Of a stretch of DNA of 64,000 nucleotides, positions 21,744 through 64,000 are shown one piece after another. A program made the position numbers and the translations under genes. Position 1 is the first letter of the stretch. Each line of letters opens with the position of its first letter. The notes below the pieces were generated by a model. That model searched no databases. It was not told where the DNA came from and saw nothing but the letters and a program-made list of their open reading frames with translations. The DNA is from Escherichia coli (GTDB taxonomy: Bacteria; Pseudomonadota; Gammaproteobacteria; Enterobacterales; Enterobacteriaceae): NCBI RefSeq assembly GCF_022846255.1, contig NZ_AP025682.1. One strand, 5' to 3'.

Positions 21744-23336
21744 TTACTCGATCCCTTTACTACGCAGGTAATCTTCGTAATTACCGCTAAAGTCGATCAC
21801 GCGTTCCGGGGTGATTTCCAGAATACGGGTCGCCAGGGAGCTTACGAACTCACGGTCGTGTGAAACAAAGATCAGCGTGCCCTGATACAGTTCCAGCGCC
21901 ATGTTCAGCGACTCAATAGATTCCATATCCAGGTGGTTGGTCGGTTCGTCCATGATCAGAATGTTCGGCTTCTGCATCATTAACTTACCAAACAGCATCC
22001 GCCCTTTCTCCCCACCGGAAAGCACTTTCGCTGGCTTTTTGATGTCGTCCTGGCTGAACAGCAAACGACCGAGAATGCTGCGTACCGCCTGCTCGTCATC
22101 GCCTTCCTGCTTCCACTGGCTCATCCATTCGAACACGGTCAGATCATTTTCAAACTCATATTCGTGGTCCTGAGCGTAGTAACCAATGCGCGCGTTTTCA
22201 GACCATTTTACGGTGCCGCTGTCCGGTTGCAGATCGCCCACCAGCGTTTTCAGCAGCGTTGATTTACCGACGCCGTTGGTACCCAGTACCGCCAGTTTTT
22301 CACCCACTTCCAGCAGCAGGTTGAGATTTTTAAACAGTGGACCGTTATCAAACCCTTTAGTCAGACCTTCCACTTCCAGCGCGTTACGGAACAGTTTCTT
22401 ATCCTGCTCAAAACGGATGAACGGGTTCTGACGGCTGGAGGCTTTCACCTCTTCCAGTTTGATTTTATCAATCTGGCGCGCACGCGAAGTTGCCTGGCGA
22501 GATTTCGAGGCGTTGGCGCTAAAGCGGCTAACGAAAGATTGCAACTCAGCAATCTGCGCTTTCTTCTTGGCGTTATCAGCCAGCAGACGTTCACGCGCCT
22601 GAGTCGCCGCCGTCATGTACTCATCGTAGTTGCCCGGATAAACGCGCAGCTCGCCGTAATCCAGATCCGCCATGTGGGTACAAACCATGTTAAGGAAGTG
22701 ACGGTCGTGCGAGATGATGATCATGGTGCTGTCACGCTCGTTCAGCACCTGTTCCAGCCAGCGAATGGTGTCGATGTCGAGGTTGTTGGTCGGTTCGTCG
22801 AGCAGGAGAATGTCCGGATCAGCAAACAGCGCCTGAGCCAGCAGCACACGCAGCTTCCAGCCAGGAGCAACTTCACTCATCGGGCCGTAGTGCTGTTCCA
22901 CTGGAATTCCCACGCCAAGCAACAGTTCACCAGCGCGAGCTTCCGCAGAGTAACCGTCCATTTCGCCGTATTTCACTTCCAGATCGGCCACTTTATAGCC
23001 GTCTTCTTCACTCATTTCCGGCAAAGCATAGATGCGGTCACGCTCCTGCTTCACTTCCCACAACTCTTTATGCCCCATGATCACCGTATCCAGCACAGTG
23101 AACTCTTCAAAGGCAAACTGATCCTGACGCAGCTTACCAATGCGCTCGTTGGGATCGAGGGAAACGTTACCCAACGTCGGCTCTAAGTCGCCGCCGAGGA
23201 TCTTCATAAAGGTGGATTTACCACTACCGTTCGCGCCAATCAGGCCGTAACGGTTGCCGCCGCCGAATTTGACGGAAATGTTTTCAAACAACGGCTTACT
23301 GCCGAACTGCATGGTGACGTTACTGGAAACTAACAC
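21744..23336 (-). CDS. ybiT: ABC-F family ATPase YbiT, tandem ABC domains (530 aa)
   Basis: ORF track; two Walker A motifs ([18 protein letters not shown]); no TM domain. Confidence 0.92.
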
Positions 23337-23554
23337 AGGCGTATCCTGAAAAGAGATATGACAAACCGCGCATTATGCCATAAGTCTGAAAGAAGATCCT
23401 GCTCCTCGCTTAAGGTCTACACTCAAGCCAAAGGCAAAAAATGTGATTTCGTACACATCTGATTTCACTGTGAGCTGGAATGAACTTATAATGCACTTCC
23501 AATACTCTAATATTCTCAACCCAATGGCCTGCCAGGCACAAAATCTCGCTTAAC

Positions 23555-24475
23555 ATGAATATGAAATTGAAAACATTATTCGCAGCGGCCTTCGCTGTTG
23601 TCGGCTTTTGCAGTACCGCCTCTGCGGTAACTTATCCTCTGCCAACCGACGGGAGTCGCCTGGTTGGTCAGAATCAGGTGATCACCATTCCTGAAGGTAA
23701 CACTCAGCCGCTGGAGTATTTTGCCGCCGAGTACCAGATGGGACTTTCCAATATGATGGAAGCGAACCCGGGTGTGGATACCTTCCTGCCGAAAGGCGGT
23801 ACTGTACTGAACATTCCGCAGCAGCTGATCCTGCCGGATACCGTTCATGAAGGCATCGTCATTAACAGTGCAGAGATGCGTCTGTATTACTATCCGAAAG
23901 GGACCAACACCGTTATCGTGCTACCGATCGGCATTGGTCAGTTAGGCAAAGACACGCCTATCAACTGGACCACCAAAGTTGAGCGTAAAAAAGCAGGCCC
24001 GACCTGGACGCCGACCGCTAAAATGCACGCAGAGTACCGCGCTGCGGGCGAACCGCTTCCGGCGGTCGTTCCGGCTGGTCCGGATAACCCGATGGGGCTG
24101 TATGCACTCTACATCGGTCGCCTGTACGCTATCCATGGCACCAACGCCAACTTCGGTATCGGCCTGCGTGTAAGTCATGGTTGTGTGCGTCTGCGTAACG
24201 AAGACATCAAATTCCTGTTCGAGAAAGTACCGGTCGGTACCCGCGTACAGTTTATTGATGAGCCGGTAAAAGCGACCACCGAGCCAGACGGCAGCCGTTA
24301 TATTGAAGTCCATAACCCGCTGTCTACCACTGAAGCCCAGTTTGAAGGTCAGGAAATTGTGCCAATTACCCTGACGAAGAGCGTGCAGACAGTGACCGGT
24401 CAGCCAGATGTTGACCAGGTTGTTCTGGATGAAGCGATCAAAAATCGTTCCGGGATGCCGGTTCGTCTGAATTAA
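23555..24475 (+). CDS. ldtB: L,D-transpeptidase LdtB/YbiS (306 aa)
   Basis: ORF track; signal peptide; YkuD domain with SHGCVRL catalytic motif. Confidence 0.92.
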
Positions 24476-24492
24476 TCTTCAAAACGTAAAGC

Positions 24493-24520
24493 AAAGGCGG
24501 ACTCATAATCCGCCTTTTTA
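24493..24520. terminator. bidirectional rho-independent terminator between convergent ldtB and ybiR
   Basis: aggcgga-loop-tccgcct stem followed by TTTTT; A-rich on the other side. Confidence 0.7.
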
Positions 24521-24532
24521 ATTTGACAGACC

Positions 24533-25651
24533 TTATCCCGCCGGGATCATAACCAACAAAACATATCCCACCAGCGCCGCCCACAACAGCATCGGTATCG
24601 AATAAAGATGAAAACGCCACCAGATACGGCGATCGTTCGCCATCCGTAACGCAATCAAATTTGCCAGCGATCCGGGTAATAAACCAAAGCCACCTACGTT
24701 TACCGCCCATGCCAGTAATAAAGACGGTGGCACATAATTGAGCAGCAAAATGGTACTCGGCACGTTACTGATCACCTGCGATAAACCAATCGCCGTTAAC
24801 CATAATCCGGGGTCGGATAAATGACTCACGTTACTTAACACCCCCTGCAAAGCTGGCAGTTGGGTTAGTAAATGGACGTCGATAAACATCGCCATAAACA
24901 CCAGCAGCAGCGTCCAGTCCACACTGAGCACCACGCGACGCGCCAGCAGCGCAAAGCCCGCCGCCACAATCACCAGTCCCCACAGCTCTTGTTTTAACTC
25001 CAGCGCCGTCAGAAAGACGATATACAGCCCCAGACAACTCCACACCAGCCGCGGTTTCCACTCCGGCGTTTGCACCCCCGTATGGTATTGCAGCGCCTTT
25101 CCAGGGAAACAACACCAGCACAACAGCAGGAGTGTCAGCATCATTGCGCCAGCCAGCGGTGCCATTTGGGCAATAAATCCGGCAAACGAAAGACCAGAAC
25201 GTCCCCAGATAAGAATATTTTGCGGGTTGCCAATTGGCGTCAGTAGCGAACCAGCGTTGACTGCCAGCGCCTCAAAAATAATCAGCCGATTAACCGGGAT
25301 CTCACACAGTCTTTTTAGCGTGATAGTCAGCGGAACAACTATAAACAGCGCGACATCGTTGGTCAGAAAGGTAGAAAGCAGCGCTGCCGCCAGTACCATA
25401 AACATCGCCAGCCGACGCTCCGTAGCAAAACGGCGCACCATTTTGCGCCCCAGCACATCAAAATAACCGCTTAACTCGACACCTTTGGTCAGCAGCATCA
25501 GGCCGCTTAAGGTGATGATGGTGTGCCAGTCGATAGCAGCAGGCCAGGATTTCGGTGCAAAGGGAACGAAAAAACTTAATCCGATGCCAACAAGAATTAA
25601 TAACTGAAAAAAACGATCGCCTTGCAGCGTGCGTAAAAAAGGCAGGCTCAT
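24533..25651 (-). CDS. ybiR: putative anion/ion transporter YbiR (372 aa)
   Basis: ORF track; polytopic membrane protein; synteny downstream of mntR. Confidence 0.88.
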
Positions 25652-26115
25652 TTGGCACCGTGTTTCTGGGTAAACAAACGAAAGGCATCCAGCGTCTCTT
25701 CACTAACATGGTGCTCCATACCTTCCGCGTCGCGACGGGCGATTTCCGGACTGACGCCCAACACCAACAAGAAATTTTCGACTATCTGATGTCGCTCGCG
25801 GCTTTCCTGCGCCAGCTTCTCTCCTTCTGCCGTTAAAAACACGCCACGCCAGGGGATCATTTCAATCAGCCCCATGGTTGCCAGTCGCTTAAGCATTTTA
25901 GCCACCGTCGGTTGCGAAACTCCCAAACGAGCAGCCATGTCTACCTGACGAGCTTCCCCCACTTCCCTGATCAAGTCAGAAATCAGCTCAACGTAATCAT
26001 CAATAAGCTCGCGCCGATGCGCCTCTCTGACCTGGCGGAACCCTTCAACGTGCTCTTCCACGTTCACTAACTGCGTCACTTTTTTTGCTGTTGGCGTACC
26101 TGCGCGACGACTCAT
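25648..26115 (-). CDS. mntR: manganese-responsive transcriptional regulator MntR (155 aa)
   Basis: ORF track; DtxR-family HTH; overlaps ybiR start by 4 nt. Confidence 0.92.
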
Positions 26116-26226
26116 TGTGCTTCCTCATTATGGTGACGCATACCTAGCGTTCTCATTTCGTGCGCACATTGTAAACCAGAGTTGCGAAGGTACAAAAAAT
26201 TAACGTTTTAGCAATAGCTATATAAT

Positions 26227-26240
26227 ATAGCCTGTGCTAT
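26227..26240. promoter_or_regulatory. candidate MntR operator (ATAGC-N4-GCTAT palindrome) upstream of mntS
   Basis: atagcctgtgctat palindrome about 60 nt upstream of the mntS ATG in the mntR-mntS divergent region. Confidence 0.5.
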
Positions 26241-26300
26241 ATCTGTATGTAATGCAATCATCCCTCAAGGATCGACGGGATTAGCAAGTCAGGAGGTCTT

Positions 26301-26429
26301 ATGAATGAGTTCAAGAGGTGTATACGCGTGTTTAGTCATTCTCCCTTTAAAGTACGGTTAATGCTGCTCTCTATGTTGTGCGATATGGTCAACAACAAAC
26401 CGCAGCAGGATAAACCTTCCGATAAATAG
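26301..26429 (+). CDS. mntS: small protein MntS (42 aa), manganese homeostasis
   Basis: ATG preceded by AGGAGG; translation MNEFKRCIRVFSHSPFKVRLMLLSMLCDMVNNKPQQDKPSDK; not in the ORF track because it is below the length cut-off. Confidence 0.85.
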   Translation: MNEFKRCIRVFSHSPFKVRLMLLSMLCDMVNNKPQQDKPSDK

Positions 26430-26700
26430 CGGCGTCGCGGTACGCCGCTTCACTCCTGCTTTTATGCAGGCACAACGCGTTTTGGTCTGAAAAACCCCAC
26501 TTTTTGTCGGATTTGCAATCCCCTTCGCAAAAGATTTGTTCGTCGGTAGTTGACCTGAACAGCAGCTCGCTCTATCTTCTTGCAGCCCTGCGTATATTGC
26601 GGCTCGCGGATGCGGACCCCTTTCCCCTCTTCACGCACTCTTGCAGGTATTGACCCTTGACGCCAGGGTAAGCACATGGCGTTTGTTACAATAGTGGCAT

Positions 26701-28284
26701 ATGAATTTAACCCTCAAAGAATCGCTTGTTACCCGTAGCCGGGTATTTAGCCCGTGGACTGCGTTCTACTTTTTACAGTCGCTATTAATTAACCTCGGCT
26801 TAGGTTACCCCTTCAGTTTGCTCTACACCGCTGCGTTTACGGCTATTTTGCTTTTGCTATGGCGAACATTGCCTCGCGTACAAAAAGTTCTGGTCGGTAT
26901 CAGCTCGCTGGTGGCGGCTTGTTATTTCCCTTTTGCTCAGGCCTACGGCGCGCCTAACTTCAATACATTGCTGGCATTGCACTCCACCAATATGGAAGAG
27001 TCGACCGAAATCCTGACGATTTTTCCATGGTACAGCTACCTGGTCGGCATATTTATTTTTGCGCTCGGCGTAATAGCGATCAGGCGAAAAAAAGAGAGTG
27101 AAAAAGCGCGCTGGAATACCTTCGACAGCCTGTGCCTGGTATTCAGTGTGGCGACATTTTTTGTTGCTCCCGTGCAAAACCTGGCCTGGGGCGGCGTATT
27201 TAAACTGAAAGATACTGGCTATCCGGTATTTCGTTTTGCTAAGGATGTCATCGTCAATAATAACGAGGTGATTGAAGAGCAAGAACGGATGGCAAAACTT
27301 TCCGGAATGAAAGATACCTGGACGGTCACTGCCGTTAAGCCGAAGTATCAGACCTATGTGGTGGTGATCGGAGAAAGCGCGCGTCGCGATGCCCTCGGTG
27401 CCTTTGGCGGTCACTGGGACAATACCCCGTTTGCCAGCAGCGTTAACGGTTTGATATTTGCTGACTACATTGCCGCCAGTGGCTCCACGCAGAAATCGCT
27501 TGGCTTAACGCTCAATCGCGTTGTCGATGGCAAACCACAGTTTCAGGATAACTTTGTCACCCTGGCAAATCGCGCGGGCTTCCAGACCTGGTGGTTTTCC
27601 AACCAGGGTCAAATCGGCGAATACGATACCGCCATCGCCAGCATCGCCAAACGAGCAGATGAAGTGTACTTCCTGAAAGAAGGTAATTTTGAAGCAGATA
27701 AAAACACGAAAGACGAAGCGTTACTGGATATGACCGCTCAAGTGCTGGCGCAAGAGCACTCGCAACCGCAGCTGATTGTTCTACATCTGATGGGCTCGCA
27801 TCCGCAGGCCTGCGACCGGACACAAGGCAAATACGAAACCTTTGTGCAATCAAAAGAAACGTCGTGCTATCTCTATACCATGACGCAAACAGACAATTTA
27901 CTGCGCAAGCTGTACGATCAGTTACGCAACAGCGGCAGCAGCTTCTCGCTGGTTTACTTTTCCGACCACGGTCTGGCCTTTAAAGAGCGCGGCAAAGACG
28001 TGCAATACCTTGCCCATGATGATAAGTATCAGCAAAATTTCCAGGTGCCTTTTATGGTCATTTCCAGCGACGATAAAGCGCATCGGGTGATTAAAGCCCG
28101 CCGCTCGGCGAATGACTTCTTAGGCTTTTTCTCGCAGTGGACGGGAATTAAAGCGAAGGAAATAAATATCAAATACCCGTTTATTTCTGAGAAGAAAGCC
28201 GGGCCGATATACATCACCAACTTCCAGTTACAGAAGGTGGATTACAACCATCTCGGAACCGATAATTTCGACCCGAAACCTTAA
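26701..28284 (+). CDS. opgE: phosphoethanolamine transferase OpgE/YbiP (527 aa)
   Basis: ORF track; N-terminal TM helices plus sulfatase-like periplasmic domain. Confidence 0.9.
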   Translation: MNLTLKESLVTRSRVFSPWTAFYFLQSLLINLGLGYPFSLLYTAAFTAILLLLWRTLPRVQKVLVGISSLVAACYFPFAQAYGAPNFNTLLALHSTNMEESTEILTIFPWYSYLVGIFIFALGVIAIRRKKESEKARWNTFDSLCLVFSVATFFVAPVQNLAWGGVFKLKDTGYPVFRFAKDVIVNNNEVIEEQERMAKLSGMKDTWTVTAVKPKYQTYVVVIGESARRDALGAFGGHWDNTPFASSVNGLIFADYIAASGSTQKSLGLTLNRVVDGKPQFQDNFVTLANRAGFQTWWFSNQGQIGEYDTAIASIAKRADEVYFLKEGNFEADKNTKDEALLDMTAQVLAQEHSQPQLIVLHLMGSHPQACDRTQGKYETFVQSKETSCYLYTMTQTDNLLRKLYDQLRNSGSSFSLVYFSDHGLAFKERGKDVQYLAHDDKYQQNFQVPFMVISSDDKAHRVIKARRSANDFLGFFSQWTGIKAKEINIKYPFISEKKAGPIYITNFQLQKVDYNHLGTDNFDPKP

Positions 28285-28285
28285 A

Positions 28286-28318
28286 ACAAAAAAATCCGCC
28301 CCGAGAGGCGGATTTTTA
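28286..28318. terminator. bidirectional rho-independent terminator between convergent opgE and ompX
   Basis: A-run, atccgcc-loop-ggcggat stem, T-run. Confidence 0.8.
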
Positions 28319-28332
28319 TATCACCGAAGTGA

Positions 28333-28848
28333 TTAGAAGCGGTAACCAACACCGGCAATCCAGGTGCCTACGTCAACGCTACGAATACGGCTCTGCTCGT
28401 AAGAGAAGTCCAGAGCAACGTTTTCCATCGGGTTGAACTGCAAACCAGCACCGTAGGAGAAACCGTAGTCGCTGGTGTCGTGTTTGTAGGTCGGGTATTC
28501 AGTGGTCTGGAATTTACCATAACCCACACCCACTACACCGTAGATGCTTGCCCAGTCGTTAATGCGGTAAGCCGGACCAGCAGTGATGCCGTAGTACTGG
28601 TTTTTGTTGTAGTCACCAGAGCTTGCAGTACGGCTTTTCTCGGTGTAAGTGAAAGAACCGATCACACCCAGCGGGCTGTTGTCTTCTTCATAGCGGTATT
28701 TCAGGTTGAAACCGCCCATTTTGTTCATTTGGCCCTGAGCGTCGCTTTGTGCGTAACCGCCAGTTACGGTAGAAGTCGCAGCTACGGAAGTACCTGCGGT
28801 GAAAGCCAGAACTGCGGCCAGTGCTGAAAGACATGCAATTTTTTTCAT
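28333..28848 (-). CDS. ompX: outer membrane protein OmpX (171 aa)
   Basis: ORF track trimmed to MKKIACLSALAAVLAFTAGTSVA; C-terminal ...GYRF beta-barrel signature. Confidence 0.95.
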   Translation of the reverse strand: MKKIACLSALAAVLAFTAGTSVAATSTVTGGYAQSDAQGQMNKMGGFNLKYRYEEDNSPLGVIGSFTYTEKSRTASSGDYNKNQYYGITAGPAYRINDWASIYGVVGVGYGKFQTTEYPTYKHDTSDYGFSYGAGLQFNPMENVALDFSYEQSRIRSVDVGTWIAGVGYRF

Positions 28849-29200
28849 AACCACCTCAAATGTGATTCAAATAAGTCCTAAGTTTTAAATATATCAAAAA
28901 TTAATGGGAAACTCTTCGCGATTTATGATGTCTAACGGGCCATTTCATGTAACAGAACGTTTCCATACACCGCTATCCATCTAAATTTAAATCACTTTTT
29001 CAGAGAACTGCGTAAGTATTACGCATGTTTTCCCTGTCATTCATCCAGATTATTCCTAATCACCAGACTAATGATTCCATCAATCCTGGCGCATTTTAGT
29101 CAAAACGGGGGAAAATTTTTTCAACAAATGCTCAACCAGCATTGGGTATATCCAGTACACTCCACGCTTTACTTAGGTTTAGATATTTGTGGGAGAAAGG

Positions 29201-30088
29201 ATGCCTGGTTCATTACGTAAAATGCCGGTCTGGTTACCAATAGTCATATTGCTCGTTGCCATGGCGTCTATTCAGGGTGGAGCCTCGTTAGCTAAGTCAC
29301 TTTTTCCTCTGGTGGGCGCACCAGGGGTCACTGCGCTGCGTCTGGCATTAGGCACGCTGATCCTCATCGCGTTCTTTAAGCCATGGCGACTGCGCTTTGC
29401 CAAAGAGCAACGATTACCGCTGTTGTTTTACGGCGTTTCGCTGGGTGGAATGAATTATCTTTTTTATCTTTCTATTCAGACGGTACCGCTGGGTATTGCG
29501 GTGGCGCTGGAGTTCACCGGACCACTGGCGGTGGCACTGTTCTCTTCTCGTCGCCCGGTAGATTTCGTCTGGGTTGTGCTGGCGGTTCTTGGTCTGTGGT
29601 TCCTGCTACCGCTGGGGCAAGACGTTTCCCATGTCGATTTAACCGGCTGTGCGCTGGCACTGGGGGCCGGGGCTTGTTGGGCTATTTACATTTTAAGTGG
29701 GCAACGCGCAGGAGCGGAACATGGCCCTGCGACGGTGGCAATTGGTTCGTTGATTGCAGCGTTAATTTTCGTGCCAATTGGAGCGCTTCAGGCTGGTGAA
29801 GCACTCTGGCACTGGTCGGTTATTCCATTGGGTCTGGCTGTCGCTATTCTCTCGACCGCTCTGCCTTATTCGCTGGAAATGATTGCCCTCACCCGTTTGC
29901 CAACACGCACATTTGGTACGCTAATGAGCATGGAACCTGCGCTGGCTGCCGTTTCCGGGATGATTTTCCTCGGAGAAACACTGACACCCATACAGCTGCT
30001 GGCGCTCGGCGCTATCATCGCCGCTTCAATGGGTTCTACGCTGACAGTACGCAAAGAGAGCAAAATAAAAGAATTAGACATAAATTAA
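29201..30088 (+). CDS. rhtA: threonine/homoserine exporter RhtA (DMT superfamily, 295 aa)
   Basis: ORF track trimmed to MPGSLRKMPVW with GGGAGAAAGG RBS; 10-TM EamA-type. Confidence 0.9.
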   Translation: MPGSLRKMPVWLPIVILLVAMASIQGGASLAKSLFPLVGAPGVTALRLALGTLILIAFFKPWRLRFAKEQRLPLLFYGVSLGGMNYLFYLSIQTVPLGIAVALEFTGPLAVALFSSRRPVDFVWVVLAVLGLWFLLPLGQDVSHVDLTGCALALGAGACWAIYILSGQRAGAEHGPATVAIGSLIAALIFVPIGALQAGEALWHWSVIPLGLAVAILSTALPYSLEMIALTRLPTRTFGTLMSMEPALAAVSGMIFLGETLTPIQLLALGAIIAASMGSTLTVRKESKIKELDIN

Positions 30089-33591: not shown

Positions 33592-33674
33592 ACACCAGAT
33601 TCCTCTCATTTAAAATCGCCCAGCCTCCAGCATCTATACTTATCTTTTTGCTCTGTTTTCTCACTGGAGGAGTC

Positions 33675-35900
33675 ATGCGGTGGATCCTGTTCATCCTCTT
33701 CTGCCTGTTGGGCGCACCTGCCCACGCGGTATCCATACCCGGCGTTACAACCACAACGACAACGGACTCAACGACTGAACCGGCCCCGGAACCGGATATC
33801 GAACAAAAAAAAGCGGCCTATGGCGCACTGGCGGATGTGCTGGATAATGACACCTCGCGTAAAGAGTTGATCGACCAGTTGCGCACCGTCGCCGCGACGC
33901 CCCCTGCGGAACCCGTACCGAAGATCGTGCCGCCGACGCTGGTTGAAGAGCAAACCGTGCTGCAAAAGGTCACCGAAGTCAGCCGCCATTATGGTGAAGC
34001 CCTTTCCGCCCGCTTCGGGCAACTTTATCGCAATATCACCGGCTCCCCGCATAAGCCGTTTAATCCACAAACCTTCAGCAATGCGCTGACCCACTTTTCA
34101 ATGTTAGCGGTATTAGTGTTTGGTTTTTACTGGCTGATTCGTCTGTGCGCACTGCCGCTGTATCGCAAAATGGGCCAGTGGGCGCGGCAAAAAAATCGTG
34201 AGCGCAGTAACTGGTTGCAGCTTCCGGCGATGATCATCGGGGCGTTTATTATCGACCTGCTGTTACTGGCACTGACATTATTTGTCGGCCAGGTATTAAG
34301 CGACAACCTGAATGCGGGCAGTCGCACCATCGCTTTCCAACAAAGTTTGTTTCTCAACGCCTTTGCCCTGATTGAATTTTTCAAAGCCGTACTACGCCTG
34401 ATTTTTTGCCCAAACGTGGCTGAACTGCGCCCGTTCACGATTCATGACGAGACCGCCCGTTACTGGAGTCGTCGCCTGAGCTGGTTAAGCAGCCTGATTG
34501 GCTATGGTCTGATTGTGGCTGTGCCGATTATCTCTAATCAGGTGAATGTACAGATAGGTGCGCTGGCAAACGTCATCATTATGCTGTGCATGACCGTCTG
34601 GGCGTTGTACCTGATTTTTCGTAATAAAAAAGAGATCACCCAGCATTTGCTCAACTTTGCGGAGCATTCGCTGGCCTTTTTCAGCCTGTTTATCCGCGCC
34701 TTTGCGCTGGTGTGGCACTGGCTGGCAAGCGCCTATTTTATCGTGCTGTTTTTCTTTTCGTTGTTCGATCCGGGCAACAGCCTGAAATTTATGATGGGTG
34801 CAACGGTGCGCAGCCTGGCGATTATTGGTATCGCAGCATTTGTTTCCGGTATGTTTTCCCGCTGGCTGGCAAAAACCATCACCCTCTCGCCACATACTCA
34901 GCGTAACTATCCAGAACTGCAAAAACGGCTGAATGGCTGGCTTTCGGCGGCGCTGAAAACGGCGCGTATTCTGACCGTCTGCGTGGCGGTAATGTTGCTG
35001 TTGAGCGCATGGGGATTGTTCGATTTCTGGAACTGGCTGCAAAACGGCGCGGGGCAGAAAACCGTAGATATCCTGATCCGTATCGCACTCATTCTTTTCT
35101 TCTCGGCGGTTGGCTGGACGGTGCTCGCCAGTTTGATCGAAAACCGGCTGGCTTCGGATATTCATGGCCGCCCGCTACCCAGCGCCCGTACGCGAACCCT
35201 GCTGACGCTGTTCCGTAACGCGCTGGCGGTGATTATCAGTACCATCACCATCATGATTGTGTTGTCGGAAATCGGCGTCAATATCGCGCCATTGCTGGCA
35301 GGTGCCGGGGCATTAGGTCTGGCTATCTCGTTTGGTTCGCAAACGCTGGTGAAAGATATCATTACCGGAGTATTTATTCAGTTTGAAAACGGCATGAACA
35401 CTGGAGATTTGGTGACTATCGGGCCGTTGACCGGCACTGTGGAACGGATGTCGATTCGCTCCGTGGGCGTGCGCCAGGATACCGGGGCGTATCACATCAT
35501 TCCGTGGTCTTCGATAACCACCTTTGCTAACTTCGTCCGCGGTATTGGTTCGGTAGTGGCAAATTATGATGTTGATCGCCATGAAGATGCTGATAAAGCC
35601 AATCAGGCACTGAAAGATGCGGTAGCGGAATTAATGGAAAACGAAGAAATTCGCGGGCTGGTTATTGGTGAACCGAACTTTGCCGGGATTGTCGGCTTAA
35701 GCAATACCGCGTTTACACTGCGTGTTTCGTTCACCACGCTGCCACTCAAACAGTGGACGGTCCGCTTTGCCCTCGACAGCCAGGTGAAAAAACATTTCGA
35801 CCTGGCGGGTGTTCGCGCGCCGGTGCAGACTTATCAGGTGCTGCCAGCTCCGGGCGCGGCCCCGGCTGAACCGTTGCCGCCGGGGGAGCCAACGCTTTAA
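33675..35900 (+). CDS. ybiO: MscS-family mechanosensitive channel YbiO (741 aa)
   Basis: ORF track trimmed to [18 protein letters not shown] (signal peptide, GGAGGAG RBS); multiple TM helices plus MscS C-terminal domain. Confidence 0.9.
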
Positions 35901-46293: not shown

Positions 46294-46365
46294 TTGTGGC
46301 ATTTTTCGGTTTTCAGGGGTAATGGTTTTTCTGTTTCGGGAAAGCGGCTCGCAATAACCAGCAGG

Positions 46366-46563
46366 ATGATGCGTAAAGCGCTTCGCGCTAAATTCGAACA
46401 ACATGCAGAACTGCGTACACTCTTGCGGGCAACCGCGTCCGCAAAACTGGTTGAGCATACGCAAAATGATGCTTACTGGGGAGATGGCGGTAATGGTCAG
46501 GGCAAGAATCGCCTGGGGTACCTTTTAATGGCGTTGCGCGGACAATTGGCTGCGGAGAAGTAA
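46366..46563 (+). pseudogene. ybiA: 3' remnant of ybiA (DUF1768 N-glycosidase family); 5' two-thirds missing
   Basis: only the C-terminal roughly 65 codons (MMRKALRAKFEQHAEL...NDAYWGDGGNGQGKNRLGYLLMALRGQLAAEK) carry the family motif; the in-frame upstream open frame runs through the dinG LexA box and start codon. Confidence 0.7.
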
Positions 46564-46644
46564 CGCATCGGGTGGCTTGTGGGCGTTAAAACAGAGAAAT
46601 CTTTTTGCCGCGCTCGCAAATGGCTGACAAGTGCTTGTTGTGAA

Positions 46645-46746
46645 ATGCCGGATGCGGCGCGAGCGCCTTATCCGGCCTACAAAAACATGCACATTCAATA
46701 TATTGCAGAGTTCACGTAGGCCTGATAAGCGTAGCGCATCAGGCAG
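46645..46746. repeat. BIME-1/RIP-like element: REP, IHF-like linker, REP
   Basis: atgccggatgcggcgcgagcgccttatccggcctac - linker with tcaatatattg - gtaggcctgataagcgtagcgcatcaggc; followed by hairpin catgccgggcatagcccggcatg at about 46768..46789. Confidence 0.85.
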
Positions 46747-46814
46747 TTTTGTGTTTGTCATCAGTCTCATGCCGGGCATAGCCCGGCATAAAAGATTACT
46801 GCGCAGCGGCAGGT

Positions 46815-48149
46815 TTACGCGGACGGCGGCGACGTTGTTGTTCGCCTGCCGGTTTGGCATCGACGAGACGGTTTTTCTGCGGGCTTCGCGTTACCAGACT
46901 TCGCACCACTTTCCGTACGGCGTGGTTGCTGTTGACCGCGACCACCGCCCTGTCCACGACCGCCGCCACGTTGCTGGCGACCGTTCTGGATCGGTTCGGC
47001 TTTGATTGACGGGTCCGGCTCATACCCCGGAATCGCAATGCGCGGGATCTCTTTTTTCAGCAGTTTTTCGATATCACGCAGCAGTTTGTGTTCATCAACA
47101 CACACCAGCGACAATGCTTCGCCAGTTGCCGCCGCACGGCCAGTACGCCCGATACGGTGAACATAATCTTCCGGTACGTTTGGTAACTCATAGTTGACGA
47201 CGTGCGGCAACTCTTCGATATCCAGACCGCGCGCAGCGATGTCAGTTGCCACCAGTACACGAATATCGCCCGATTTAAAATCGGCCAGCGCACGAGTACG
47301 CGCACCTTGCGATTTATTACCGTGGATCGCCGCACTACGGATGCCGTCTTTATTAAGCTGTTCAGCCAGATGGTTAGCGCCATGTTTGGTACGGGTAAAC
47401 ACCAGCACCTGCTGCCAGTTCCCTTTCCCAATCATATGCGACAGCAATTCGCGTTTGCGTTTCTTATCGACAAAGTGAACGTGCTGGGTCACCTGATCAG
47501 ACGCAGTATTGCGGCGTGCCACTTCGATTTCCAGCGGGTTGTGCAACAGTTTTTCCGCCAGGGCTTTAATATCGTCAGAGAAGGTCGCGGAGAACAACAG
47601 GTTCTGGCGCTTCGCTGGCAGTTTTGTTAACACGCGACGGATATCGTGGATAAAGCCCATGTCGAGCATGCGGTCAGCTTCATCAAGGACGAGGATTTCA
47701 ACCTGATCCAGCTTCACTGCATTTTGATGTTCCAGGTCCAGCAGACGTCCCGGCGTTGCCACCAGCACATCAACGCCGCCGCGCAACTTCATCATTTGTG
47801 GGTTAATGCTGACACCGCCAAACACCACCAGCGAACGAATGTTCAGATATTTGCTGTAATCACGGACGTTTTCGCCAATCTGCGCCGCCAGTTCACGGGT
47901 CGGGGTAAGAATGAGCGCGCGTACCGGACGACGCCCTTTGGCGTGCGGCTGGCGAGTGATCAGGTGTTGCAACAACGGCAGCGTAAAGCCCGCTGTTTTG
48001 CCGGTACCGGTCTGGGCGCTGGCCATCAGGTCGCGGCCTTCCAGCACCGCAGGGATCGCCTGCTGCTGAATAGGGGTGGGTTCACGGTAACCCTGCTCGG
48101 CAACGGCGCGCAGGATATCAGGGCTTAAACCCAAAGAATCGAAAGACAT
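46815..48149 (-). CDS. rhlE: DEAD-box RNA helicase RhlE; reading frame shifted near the 3' end (444-aa ORF; expected C-terminal tail is in another frame ending at 46796)
   Basis: ORF track; [17 protein letters not shown]-terminus, [23 protein letters not shown] motifs; Arg-rich tail ...[23 protein letters not shown] is encoded out of frame in ORF 46796..47038. Confidence 0.85.
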
Positions 48150-59973: not shown

Positions 59974-60451
59974 CCGCTTCCACCTTAAAGTCACCCGACT
60001 TGCCGCCGCTCTTCGCCAGCAAACGTACCGGACCAATCACCATATCTTTTTGCACCGCTTTGCACATGTCATAAATGGTCAGCGCCGCCACGGAGGCCGC
60101 GGTTAACGCTTCCATTTCGACACCGGTTTTCCCGGTCAGGCGGCATAAGGTTTCTATACGTACCCGATTGTGCTCCGGCTCGGCCTGTAAATTGACTTCA
60201 ACTTTGCTGAGCATCAGCGGGTGACACAGCGGGATCAGATCCCAGGTGCGTTTTGCCGCCTGAATACCGGCGATACGCGCAGTGGCAAATACGTCGCCTT
60301 TGTGGTGGCGACCATCAATAATCATCGCCAGCGTCTCGCTGCGCATGGTGACAAAGGCTTCGGCGCGCGCTTCACGCACGGTTTCCGCTTTGGCGGAGAC
60401 ATCCACCATGTGCGCTTCGCCAGCGGCGTTGATATGGGTCAGTTGCGACAT
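59966..60451 (-). CDS. moaC: cyclic pyranopterin monophosphate synthase accessory protein MoaC (161 aa)
   Basis: ORF track; synteny. Confidence 0.95.
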
Positions 60452-60453
60452 AC

Positions 60454-60966
60454 TTATTTCTTCAAATGTGGATGGAAATTACACGGACGCGTACGGGCAT
60501 CCAGCTGCGGCGCAATGATATTTTCCCATGCGGTACGGCACGCTTTGGTCGAACCCGGCATGGCGAAAATCAGCGTTTTGTTAGCGACGCCCGCTACCGC
60601 ACGAGATTGCAACGTGGAAGTGCCAATCTCTTCGAACGACAACATCCGGAACACTTCACCAAAACCTTCAACTTCACGGTCGAACAACGGCAGCAGCGCT
60701 TCGGGAGCCTGATCTCCTTCCGTCAGGCCAGTACCACCCGTAATCAACACCACTTGTACATCGTCGCTGGCGATCCACGCAGATACCTGAGCGCGAATAG
60801 CGTAGCGGTTTTCTTTCACAATGGCTTTATCGACAACGTGATGGCCCGCTTCTTGCGCCGAGTCGCGCAGATAGTGACCGGAGGTATCGTCTTCTTCACC
60901 GCGACGATTAGAAACCGTAAGAATAGCAATACGGGTCGGGATAAATTCAGTGCTTACCTGACTCAT
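60454..60966 (-). CDS. moaB: MoaB, MogA-like molybdopterin-binding protein (170 aa)
   Basis: ORF track; synteny. Confidence 0.95.
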
Positions 60967-60987
60967 CTGATCTCTCCTTTTGACGTT

Positions 60988-61977
60988 TTAGCCACCAATG
61001 TACGATAAGTTTTGCGTAATACCGGTGTTATTTTGATGCAGGAAATGGGTCTGTTTTTTCTCCCGCAGCGCCGCTGAAATACGCGCTTCCAGCGCCTGTT
61101 GCTGGGTATCGTCTTCCAGCAGATCGCGCAGGTTAACGCCGCCTTCACCAAACAGGCAGAGATGGAGTTTACCAATGGAGGAAACGCGCAGGCGGTTGCA
61201 AGTGGCGCAGAAGTCTTTTTCATACGGCATGATAAGGCCAATCTCTCCGGCGTAATCCGGATGACAAAAGACTTGCGCGGGACCGTCGCTGCGTTGACGT
61301 AATTGGTGGATCCAGCCGCGACGCAGTAGCTCGTCACGCAGAACCTGACCAGAGATGTGATGCTTACGGAAGAGCTCGCTGCCCTCGCCCGTTTCCATCA
61401 ATTCGATGAAACGCAGCTGGATAGGGCGATGCTGGATCCAGTTCAGAAAGGTGTCGAGCTGATGATGATTAACATCACGCATCAGCACGGTATTGACTTT
61501 GACCTTCTCAAAACCGGCCTCAAATGCAGCATCGATTCCTGCCATGACCTGGTTGAATTTATCCTGCCCGGTAATGGCATGAAACTGGCGAGCGTCAAGG
61601 CTATCAACGCTGACGTTGATGCCAGTAAGTCCAGCATCGCGCCAGTTCGCCACATCGCGTTCCAGACGGTAACCATTGGTGGTGACCGCAATCTGGCGGA
61701 TAGCGTCGTTTTCCCGCACAGCGGCGATGATATCGGTAAAGTCGCGGCGTAAAGATGGCTCACCGCCCGTCAGACGGACTTTTTCGGTGCCAAGACTGGC
61801 GAAGGCGCGCGTAACCCGGCGAATTTCATCGACGGTAAGAAAGCCTTTATTGGTGACGCCGCTCGGTTTGTAGCCATCCGGCAGGCAGTAGGTGCAACGA
61901 AAGTTACACACATCGGTAATCGACAGGCGCAAGTAGTAAAACTTACGCGCAAATGCATCAGTCAGTTGTGAAGCCAT
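60988..61977 (-). CDS. moaA: GTP 3',8-cyclase MoaA (radical SAM, 329 aa)
   Basis: ORF track 60988..62058 trimmed to [31 protein letters not shown]; the longer ORF would read through the leader. Confidence 0.93.
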
Positions 61978-61984
61978 GTACACC

Positions 61985-62125
61985 TTTCCAGATACGGGAG
62001 GCGAAGTCATTTCTTCCTTCGCCCTGGTGGCAATCTTTACAAGCATTGTCACGGCCAAAGCACCGTATCAGTTGACCCAGGTGCAGAGGCTAGAGTGTTT
62101 AGTGGTTAAGCCGATACTAGCGTGT
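61985..62125 (-). ncRNA. Moco riboswitch (moaA 5' leader RNA)
   Basis: minus-strand sequence ...aaacactctagcctctgcacctgggtcaactgatacggtgctttggccgtgacaatgcttgtaaagattgccaccagggcgaaggaagaaatgacttcgcctcc... immediately upstream of the moaA ATG; boundaries approximate. Confidence 0.7.
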
Positions 62126-62147
62126 AAATGAGATTTTTACCATCCAC

Positions 62148-62178
62148 ACTTTCGCTATGTAATCATGTATATAGCGTC
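62148..62178. promoter_or_regulatory. candidate ModE operator in the moaA promoter region
   Basis: tcgctatgtaatcatgtatatagcg, a CGCTAT...ATAGCG palindrome. Confidence 0.55.
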
Positions 62179-62313
62179 ATGATCGTGCTATTTCGCTACA
62201 GAATAAGGGAAAATGGCGGTTTTACTTTGATATACATCATCAGGGATGCATAGCGTGCATCGTCCTTTAGAGGTAGAAGAAAATAGTTTGTATCCTCAAT
62301 ATTGGCAGGTTAA

Positions 62314-63282
<969 letters not shown>

Positions 63283-63284
63283 CA

Positions 63285-63311
63285 CGAAGCCGGAAGAATA
63301 TTCCGGCTTCG
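63285..63311. terminator. hairpin between convergent ybhK and uvrB
   Basis: 10-bp stem gaagccggaa / ttccggcttc in the 37-nt gap between the two stops. Confidence 0.5.
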
Positions 63312-63319
63312 TCATCTTG

Positions 63320-64000
63320 TCACGACGCGGCAATAAACAGCTCACGCAACTGATGCAACTGGTCACGAATTTGCGCCGCTTCTTCGAACTCCAGATTCTG
63401 CGCGTGTTGCATCATCAACCCTTCCAGTTCATGGATCTTCTGCTGTAACGCTTTAGGCGACATATCCATCGGCACATTATCCGGTTCAACAATCGGGCGC
63501 GATTTTCCTCTGCCCTTCGCTTTGGTTTTGGCAATGTTCTGCCCCAGCGCCAGGATATCGACCACTTTCTTGTTCAAGCCTTGCGGCGTAATGCCGTGTT
63601 CTTCGTTGTACTTCTGCTGTTTCTCGCGGCGACGTTCGGTTTCGCCAATCGCTTTCGCCATTGATGGGGTGATCTTATCGCCGTAGAGAATCGCTTTACC
63701 GTTAACGTTACGTGCCGCACGACCAATGGTCTGGATCAACGAACGTTCGGAACGCAGGAAGCCTTCTTTGTCAGCGTCGAGGATCGCCACCAGCGAAACT
63801 TCCGGCATATCCAGACCTTCGCGCAGTAAGTTGATCCCTACCAATACGTCGAACTCACCCAGACGCAAGTCGCGGATAATCTCCATACGTTCGACGGTGT
63901 CGATATCTGAGTGAAGATAACGCACGCGCTCACCGTGTTCTTCGAGATATTCAGTGAGATCTTCCGCCATCCGCTTGGTCAGAGTTGTAACCAGTACGCG
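63320..64000 (-). CDS. uvrB: excinuclease ABC subunit B, C-terminal part only (gene continues beyond the window end)
   Basis: ORF track fragment; helicase motif VI (QTIGRAARN) and C-terminal UvrB/UvrC interaction coiled coil. Confidence 0.9.

Follow-up and report, generated by a model that had tools for sequence, protein, structure and literature searches.

The 3' end of rhlE in the 64,000-nucleotide stretch of Escherichia coli DNA that we analyzed (the window) raises the question of whether the gene has changed its reading frame through a genuine mutation and, if so, what kind of RhlE its carrier still makes. The earlier note on this DNA had proposed that the DEAD-box helicase frame stops at 46815, that the frame for the native tail runs on to 46796, and that the switch between them lies near 46860-46870 and reflects the loss of a short unit. 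The open reading frame list and the translations bore out the placement of both frames, with a 444-aa product stopping at 46815, and alignment of the rhlE 3' end to that of K-12 revealed that 8 bases were missing from the window, one unit of a tandem octamer. The reference proteins carry the native tail and do not end in the 14-residue tail of the window product, which confirms that the Arg-rich tail has been replaced. We consider it about 88% probable that the source of the window is a B2-like E. coli (by phylogroup), that its 8-bp rhlE deletion is genuine and of the slippage type, and that the allele is probably a hypomorph rather than a null. The coordinates of the features are collected in Table 1.

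Table 1. Features of the rhlE locus in the window
Feature	Position	Strand	Extent or description	Source
rhlE coding sequence as now read	46815..48149	-	444 codons plus TAA stop (46815..46817)	ORF list
DEAD domain, intact	47562..48077	-	residues 25-196; E = 2.3e-50	Pfam PF00270
Helicase_C domain, intact	47133..47456	-	residues 232-339; E = 6.1e-31	Pfam PF00271
Retained Gly/Arg/Gln-rich basic C-terminal extension	46860..47024	-	residues 376-430; identical to intact protein	
New out-of-frame tail, 14 residues	46818..46859	-	codons 431-444	translation
Abandoned native frame with native TAA (46796..46798)	46796..46861	-	now outside the RhlE translation	ORF 46796..47038
Deletion junction motif CCGTCTCGTCGATGCC	46856..46871	-		alignments to intact alleles
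Sole remaining octamer unit cgtctcgt	46863..46870	-		alignments to intact alleles

Exactly 8 bases were absent from the window rhlE when it was aligned to the intact genes of ATCC 11775 (phylogroup B2 type, 453 aa) and of a K-12 derivative (454 aa). Intact relatives read CCGTCTCGT-CGTCTCGG-CGATGCC, whereas the window reads CCGTCTCGTCGATGCC, that is, CCGTCTCGT followed directly by CGATGCC; the string ccgtctcgtcgatgcc was found at window positions 46856..46871. Owing to CG microhomology, the junction can be placed anywhere within 46860..46863. Codons 427-432 of the intact B2 gene (P S R R L G) are CCG TCT CGT CGT CTC GGC, and the B2 parental array is an imperfect tandem octamer, CGTCTCGT CGTCTCGG CG, that comprises 2.25 units over 18 nt. 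The lost length equals one unit and the parental copies lie in tandem, as is characteristic of a tandem-repeat deletion. At periods 4-15, no other short tandem repeat in B2 rhlE has a perfect run of 7 nt or more. The parental repeat of K-12-type genes is more degenerate (CGTCTCGC CGCCTCGG CG). Besides the deletion, a single synonymous nucleotide change distinguishes the window rhlE from that of ATCC 11775. On the 3' side of the junction the window matches the references through the native TAA and beyond, and therefore the frame is never restored. After Arg430 the frame shifts, 14 unrelated residues are read, and translation stops 19 nt ahead of the native stop. The abandoned native frame aligned identically to the 3' end of intact rhlE.

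The window gene is recognizable as rhlE in all respects other than its end. It shares with intact RhlE the locus between cecR and dinG and the DEAD and Helicase_C domains, and the gene order cecR-rhlE-(ybiA remnant)-dinG is that of annotated relatives. The Pfam scores of both domains in the 444-aa product equal those of intact RhlE. Intact E. coli RhlE has 453 aa in the B2 type (WP_000007119.1) and 454 aa in the K-12 type (WP_000007101.1), and residues 1-430 of the window protein are identical to those of the former. Domains, orthology, and synteny thus assign the product to RhlE, and the motif that marks the C-terminal end of enterobacterial RhlE is missing, since the native last 23 residues are replaced with 14 unrelated ones.

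The earlier note had further suggested that the protein loses its basic C-terminal extension. This was only partly right. The extension comprises ~78 residues from residue 376 on, of which 55 are kept and the last 23 replaced. Its basic residues fall from 19 to 14 and its net charge from +12 to +9. Loss of the extension as a whole is too strong a description because the RGG-like stretch stays and the net charge is still +9. What is gone is the conserved terminal basic motif, R-x-RR-x-PR-K/R-P followed by 3-4 small residues, which ends all 14 of the aligned enterobacterial orthologues (E. marmotae, Salmonella, two Citrobacter, Enterobacter, Klebsiella, Raoultella, Kluyvera, Kosakonia, Cronobacter, Buttiauxella, Siccibacter, Franconibacter, and Scandinavium) and is absent from the window product.

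Among the same 14 orthologues, the central part of the extension is highly variable both in length and in its repeats. A variable number of 'KPAGE..PRR'-like units was seen there between genera (alignment A2, columns ~430-500), with such units present in Enterobacter, Kosakonia, Cronobacter, Siccibacter, and Franconibacter, while the extreme C-terminal motif stays fixed. Gain and loss of repeats appear to be the way in which the RhlE tail evolves. Three further public RhlE variants with normal cores, P0023 (545 aa), P0041 (525 aa, 43 members), and P0020 (500 aa), have tails that shift frame or read through at various positions in the extension. P0023 is E. coli-like, and, judging from their tail sequences, P0041 and P0020 presumably resemble the Salmonella orthologue. 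The variants suggest that the low-complexity DNA coding for the RhlE tail is generally indel-prone.

The 444-aa protein would most likely still be an active helicase with weakened tail function. With its core and the greater part of the disordered basic extension in place, the product probably remains a helicase, and because the conserved terminal basic motif is absent, somewhat weaker binding of RNA or of partner proteins would be expected. RhlE binds RNase E in vitro and can stand in for RhlB there, and its overexpression suppresses the cold sensitivity caused by deletion of csdA (PMC1616957). RhlE also binds RraA in vitro (PMC3814787). In Pseudomonas aeruginosa, RhlE1 and RhlE2 have disordered extensions that promote both the binding of RNA and phase separation and that also modulate unwinding (Hausmann et al. 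2024, PMC11260450). As in the truncated forms of those proteins, the basic disordered extension of the window RhlE is shortened and the catalytic core is kept. However, the P. aeruginosa truncations were engineered removals of the whole extension, and the extension sequences are unrelated, whereas the window allele is a natural mutation, known here from its sequence, that affects the last 23 of ~78 residues.

The new tail could also be destabilizing, so that the allele is effectively null, or the change could be neutral. The main alternative to a weakened RhlE is a dead pseudogene, in which the altered tail leads to degradation or misfolding and leaves the strain effectively rhlE-null; we regard this as unlikely. 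It would be in keeping with the conservation of the lost motif, with the finding that deletion of rhlE in E. coli has no noticeable effect on growth in the laboratory (PMC1616957), and with automated annotation: the frame is disrupted relative to the family model, the kind of defect for which PGAP assigns a pseudogene, and an equivalent allele in strain TW10590, a human stool isolate, is annotated by PGAP as a 'frameshifted' pseudogene. However, the catalytic core is whole, 55 of the 78 extension residues are intact, there is no secondary damage in the gene, and the new tail is short and hydrophilic. Furthermore, the core of P. aeruginosa RhlE1 (residues 1-392), which lacks the basic lysine-rich region, could still be purified (PMC11260450). 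These features favor a hypomorph over a null.

The deletion is not peculiar to the window. Deleted B2 loci fell into three haplotypes, 42-61 SNPs apart from one another over 7.3 kb, each of which was 0-3 SNPs from an intact complete genome. Haplotype A includes the window and loci L007, L008, and L009, and its intact sister is FEX669 (1-3 SNPs). Haplotype B (L004, L005, and L010) has CFIAFB20120266 as its intact sister (0 SNPs), and haplotype C (L006) has Trh52 (2 SNPs). Haplotypes A and B carry a T-form junction, in which CGTCTCGT is followed by CGATG, and haplotype C carries a G-form junction, in which CGTCTCG is followed by GCGATG. The undeleted parental sequence CGTCTCGTCGTCTCGG is present in all three intact sisters, and therefore the G-form represents a different deletion register and a separate event. 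Haplotypes A and B are identical in sequence for ~2.2 kb around the deletion, and the deletion may have been transferred between them by recombination.

A query for the B2-type junction is blind to deletions on K-12-type backgrounds, and the search was therefore repeated with the K-12-type junction. The same 8 bp were found to be lost on K-12-type backgrounds as well, which rules out the idea that the deletion is confined to the B2 background with its perfect repeat. The predicted 445-aa product, built for the query by applying the same deletion to the K-12-type protein, is on record in ~20 blocks of a public gene-position index. K-12-type junctions had the C-form in L014, L015, L016, and TW10590 and the T-form in the divergent L013. 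The TW10590 gene (NZ_CP035850.1, EXE32_RS22465) loses the same 8-bp unit at the same position and gains the same new tail as the window gene. It differs in its K-12-type background, its degenerate parental repeat, and a junction that keeps C rather than T, and to judge from these differences its deletion is an event independent of that in the window. TW10590 was the only one of 5,426 complete E. coli genomes with the K-12-type junction, and the B2-type junction was found in none of the 5,426. A discrete 8-bp indel thus separates the window from 5,425 of these 5,426 genomes, which rules out a chance pattern.

Taken by their haplotypes and junctions, the alleles indicate that there are at least four independent origins of the 8-bp deletion. 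Three B2 haplotypes, two junction registers, and the additional K-12-type backgrounds all speak for independent recurrence. A single ancestral deletion that spread by clonal descent and homologous recombination, with no recurrent hot spot, is quite improbable. The T-form junction shared by haplotypes A and B, with no distinguishing SNPs for ~2.2 kb, is what such a history would leave. However, haplotype C has the G-form register derived from the same parental sequence, the K-12-type alleles have lineage-specific SNPs no more than 60 nt from junctions of the C- or T-form, and every deleted haplotype has a near-identical intact sister. Recurrent deletion accounts for these alleles better than descent from one event.

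The deleted alleles are rare. The deleted B2-type protein was present in 56 index blocks versus 23,265 for the intact protein (0.24%), and the deleted K-12-type protein was present in 20 versus 58,908 (0.034%); the blocks are a rough proxy for frequency that is affected by clonal sampling and are not counts of genomes. The K-12-type share is about seven-fold below the B2-type share, and the two repeat units match at 7 of 8 positions in the B2 type and 6 of 8 in the K-12 type. That the deleted share is higher on the background with the better-matched repeat is in keeping with a mechanism that depends on the repeat. The dispensability of rhlE in the laboratory likewise fits an allele that arises repeatedly and persists at low frequency.

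One repeat unit would have been lost by strand misalignment, through either replication slippage or repair between the repeats. The G-form could be produced by realignment on the 7-nt perfect homology. The T/C-form could be produced by realignment of CGTCTCG(T/C)CG on CG(T/C)CTCGGCG, a pairing in which 9 of 10 positions match in B2 and 8 of 10 in the K-12 type, or alternatively by a deletion bounded by the 2-nt CG microhomology. The T/C-form is commoner than the G-form, yet simple slippage on the 7-nt homology predicts the G-form. In addition, an exact-sequence look-up of the 546-aa product expected from the reciprocal 8-bp duplication in its T-form B2 version found no record of it, which counts against a pure slippage hot spot, as this should yield gains too. 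The rhlE deletion is a textbook repeat-unit deletion by an ordinary mechanism. Slipped-strand deletion at short tandem repeats is exemplified by the frameshift hot spot in lacI, where CTGG is present three times. As in lacI, the rhlE array loses exactly one unit, independently and repeatedly. In contrast to lacI, the rhlE unit is 8 bp long and present in 2.25 imperfect copies, and a one-unit gain was not found in the look-up of the T-form B2 product.

Two other repeat-associated features were observed in rhlE. In the Gly-run at ~46961..46970 (- strand), the B2 type (RGGGRG) and the K-12 type (RGGGGRG) differ by an in-frame GGC of 3 bp; like the octamer deletion, it is a small indel that is associated with a repeat and lies in the DNA coding for the tail. 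Within the helicase core of K-12-type rhlE (locus L002), gene nucleotides 320-338 form a period-10 tandem repeat, TGGTGGTGTT TGGTGGTGT, which a SNP interrupts in the B2 allele. The period-10 repeat is a potential slippage site whose use would yield a true null.

It could be argued that the recurrent loss is adaptive, with removal of the motif tuning the interactions of RhlE with RNA, RNase E, or ribosome assembly and the octamer serving as a small contingency switch. We find this highly doubtful, and the more specific proposal that the octamer is a selected hot spot, at which motif loss alters RNA, RNase E, or condensate behavior to advantage in some hosts or conditions, is doubtful to the same degree. 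The deletion did occur independently at least four times, and some deleted clones have been sampled repeatedly; for example, nine samples share the L010 contig. However, very few sequences carry the allele (0.03-0.24% of blocks and 1 of 5,426 complete genomes), and no expanded allele was found in the look-up of the T-form B2 product. An array of only 2.25 imperfect units with a rare deleted state does not have the properties of a phase-variable contingency locus. What speaks for selected loss is recurrence itself and nothing beyond it. If selection were nevertheless involved, the deletion would be a natural separation-of-function allele that exposes the role of the extreme C-terminus of enterobacterial RhlE. 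Repeat-dependent mutation of a dispensable gene is the reading that we prefer.

A sequencing or assembly error, in which the genome is intact at rhlE and 8 bases went missing during assembly or consensus calling, has very little probability. An error would explain why no complete RefSeq genome has the B2-type junction. However, the exact 444-aa product was found on contigs in 56 index blocks, among them NCBI assemblies GCA_016857285.1, GCA_019146345.1, GCA_001285645.1, GCA_040132045.1, and GCA_005387665.1 and the Logan assemblies of SRR26985596 and ERR10124870, which are independent read sets. L007, L008, and L009 have the window's own haplotype, at 0-1 SNP from the window. That independent assemblies and read sets contain the identical allele, in three cases on the window haplotype, indicates that it is real and circulates in nature. 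Furthermore, an 8-bp loss outside a homopolymer is atypical of platform errors. The 444-aa protein had no exact match in a collection of 15 billion proteins, though it is present in the gene-position index; one possible reason is that NCBI calls the gene a pseudogene and so creates no protein record, as for TW10590.

The window is also without other suspicious indels. The closest complete genome is that of the O150:H6 strain FEX669, from which the window differs over 41.9 kb by 86 SNPs and 5 indels. Three of the five indels fall in ybiR and ybiO. The FEX669 annotation lists both genes as frameshifted, and the window has a full-length open reading frame for each (ybiR, 24533..25651, 372 aa; ybiO, 33648..35900, 750 aa). 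The extra bases of the window relative to FEX669 are at 24692, ~24902-24904, and 33805. Because the window frames are full-length there, the ybiR and ybiO frameshifts belong to FEX669 or its assembly. The fourth indel is a 1-bp difference in a T-run adjoining ompX, and the fifth is the 8-bp rhlE deletion. The indels that affect gene frames outside rhlE thus lie on the FEX669 side, which argues that the window is a clean sequence. The SNPs relative to FEX669 crowd the ends of the comparison (22096..30000 and 60000..64000), with only ~9 between 30 kb and 60 kb, a pattern that resembles patches of recombination on either side of a nearly identical core.

A programmed +1 ribosomal frameshift at the junction that restores the native tail can be set aside, for although the native tail frame is still open and is +1 relative to the new frame, this configuration arose by deletion in an otherwise single-frame gene, and by eye the junction CGU CGA UGC has no recognizable +1 shift site of the prfB type (CUU UGA).

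The region downstream of rhlE has features of its own. Between rhlE and dinG the window has only a C-terminal remnant of ybiA (46362..46559, + strand), which B2 relatives annotate as 'NADAR domain-containing protein, incomplete, missing N-terminus'. K-12-type genomes encode the full 160-aa N-glycosidase YbiA, and their rhlE-dinG spacer is ~300 bp longer. The stretch at ~46640..46790, downstream of the rhlE stop, matches many places in each E. coli genome (median 14), and a few plasmid matches occurred at query positions 344-385, roughly window 46716..46757. By eye, we take this stretch to resemble REP/BIME-type palindromic units. A terminator and promoter scan around the rhlE 3' end found nothing and gave no indication that the earlier rhlE stop interferes with any neighboring signal.

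A search of PubMed Central open-access papers and bioRxiv found no relevant paper on a frameshift or pseudogene of E. coli rhlE. In one RefSeq genome, that of TW10590, the annotation already marks the equivalent allele as a frameshifted pseudogene. The annotation of the window rhlE should indicate a frameshift at the 3' end that is due to a true mutation; the gene is neither a normal RhlE gene nor a destroyed one. As judged from the predicted protein, the effect is probably modest, and the deletion as such would hold no surprise for specialists.

[quoted passage not shown] Natural isolates that lack the conserved last motif but keep all else provide a ready-made allele for the function of that motif, with which RNA binding, the interaction with RNase E or RraA, and rescue of csdA cold sensitivity could be probed. 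For the evolution of the gene, the recurrence of the deletion is a small illustration of how repeat-mediated indels shape low-complexity DNA that codes for protein tails.
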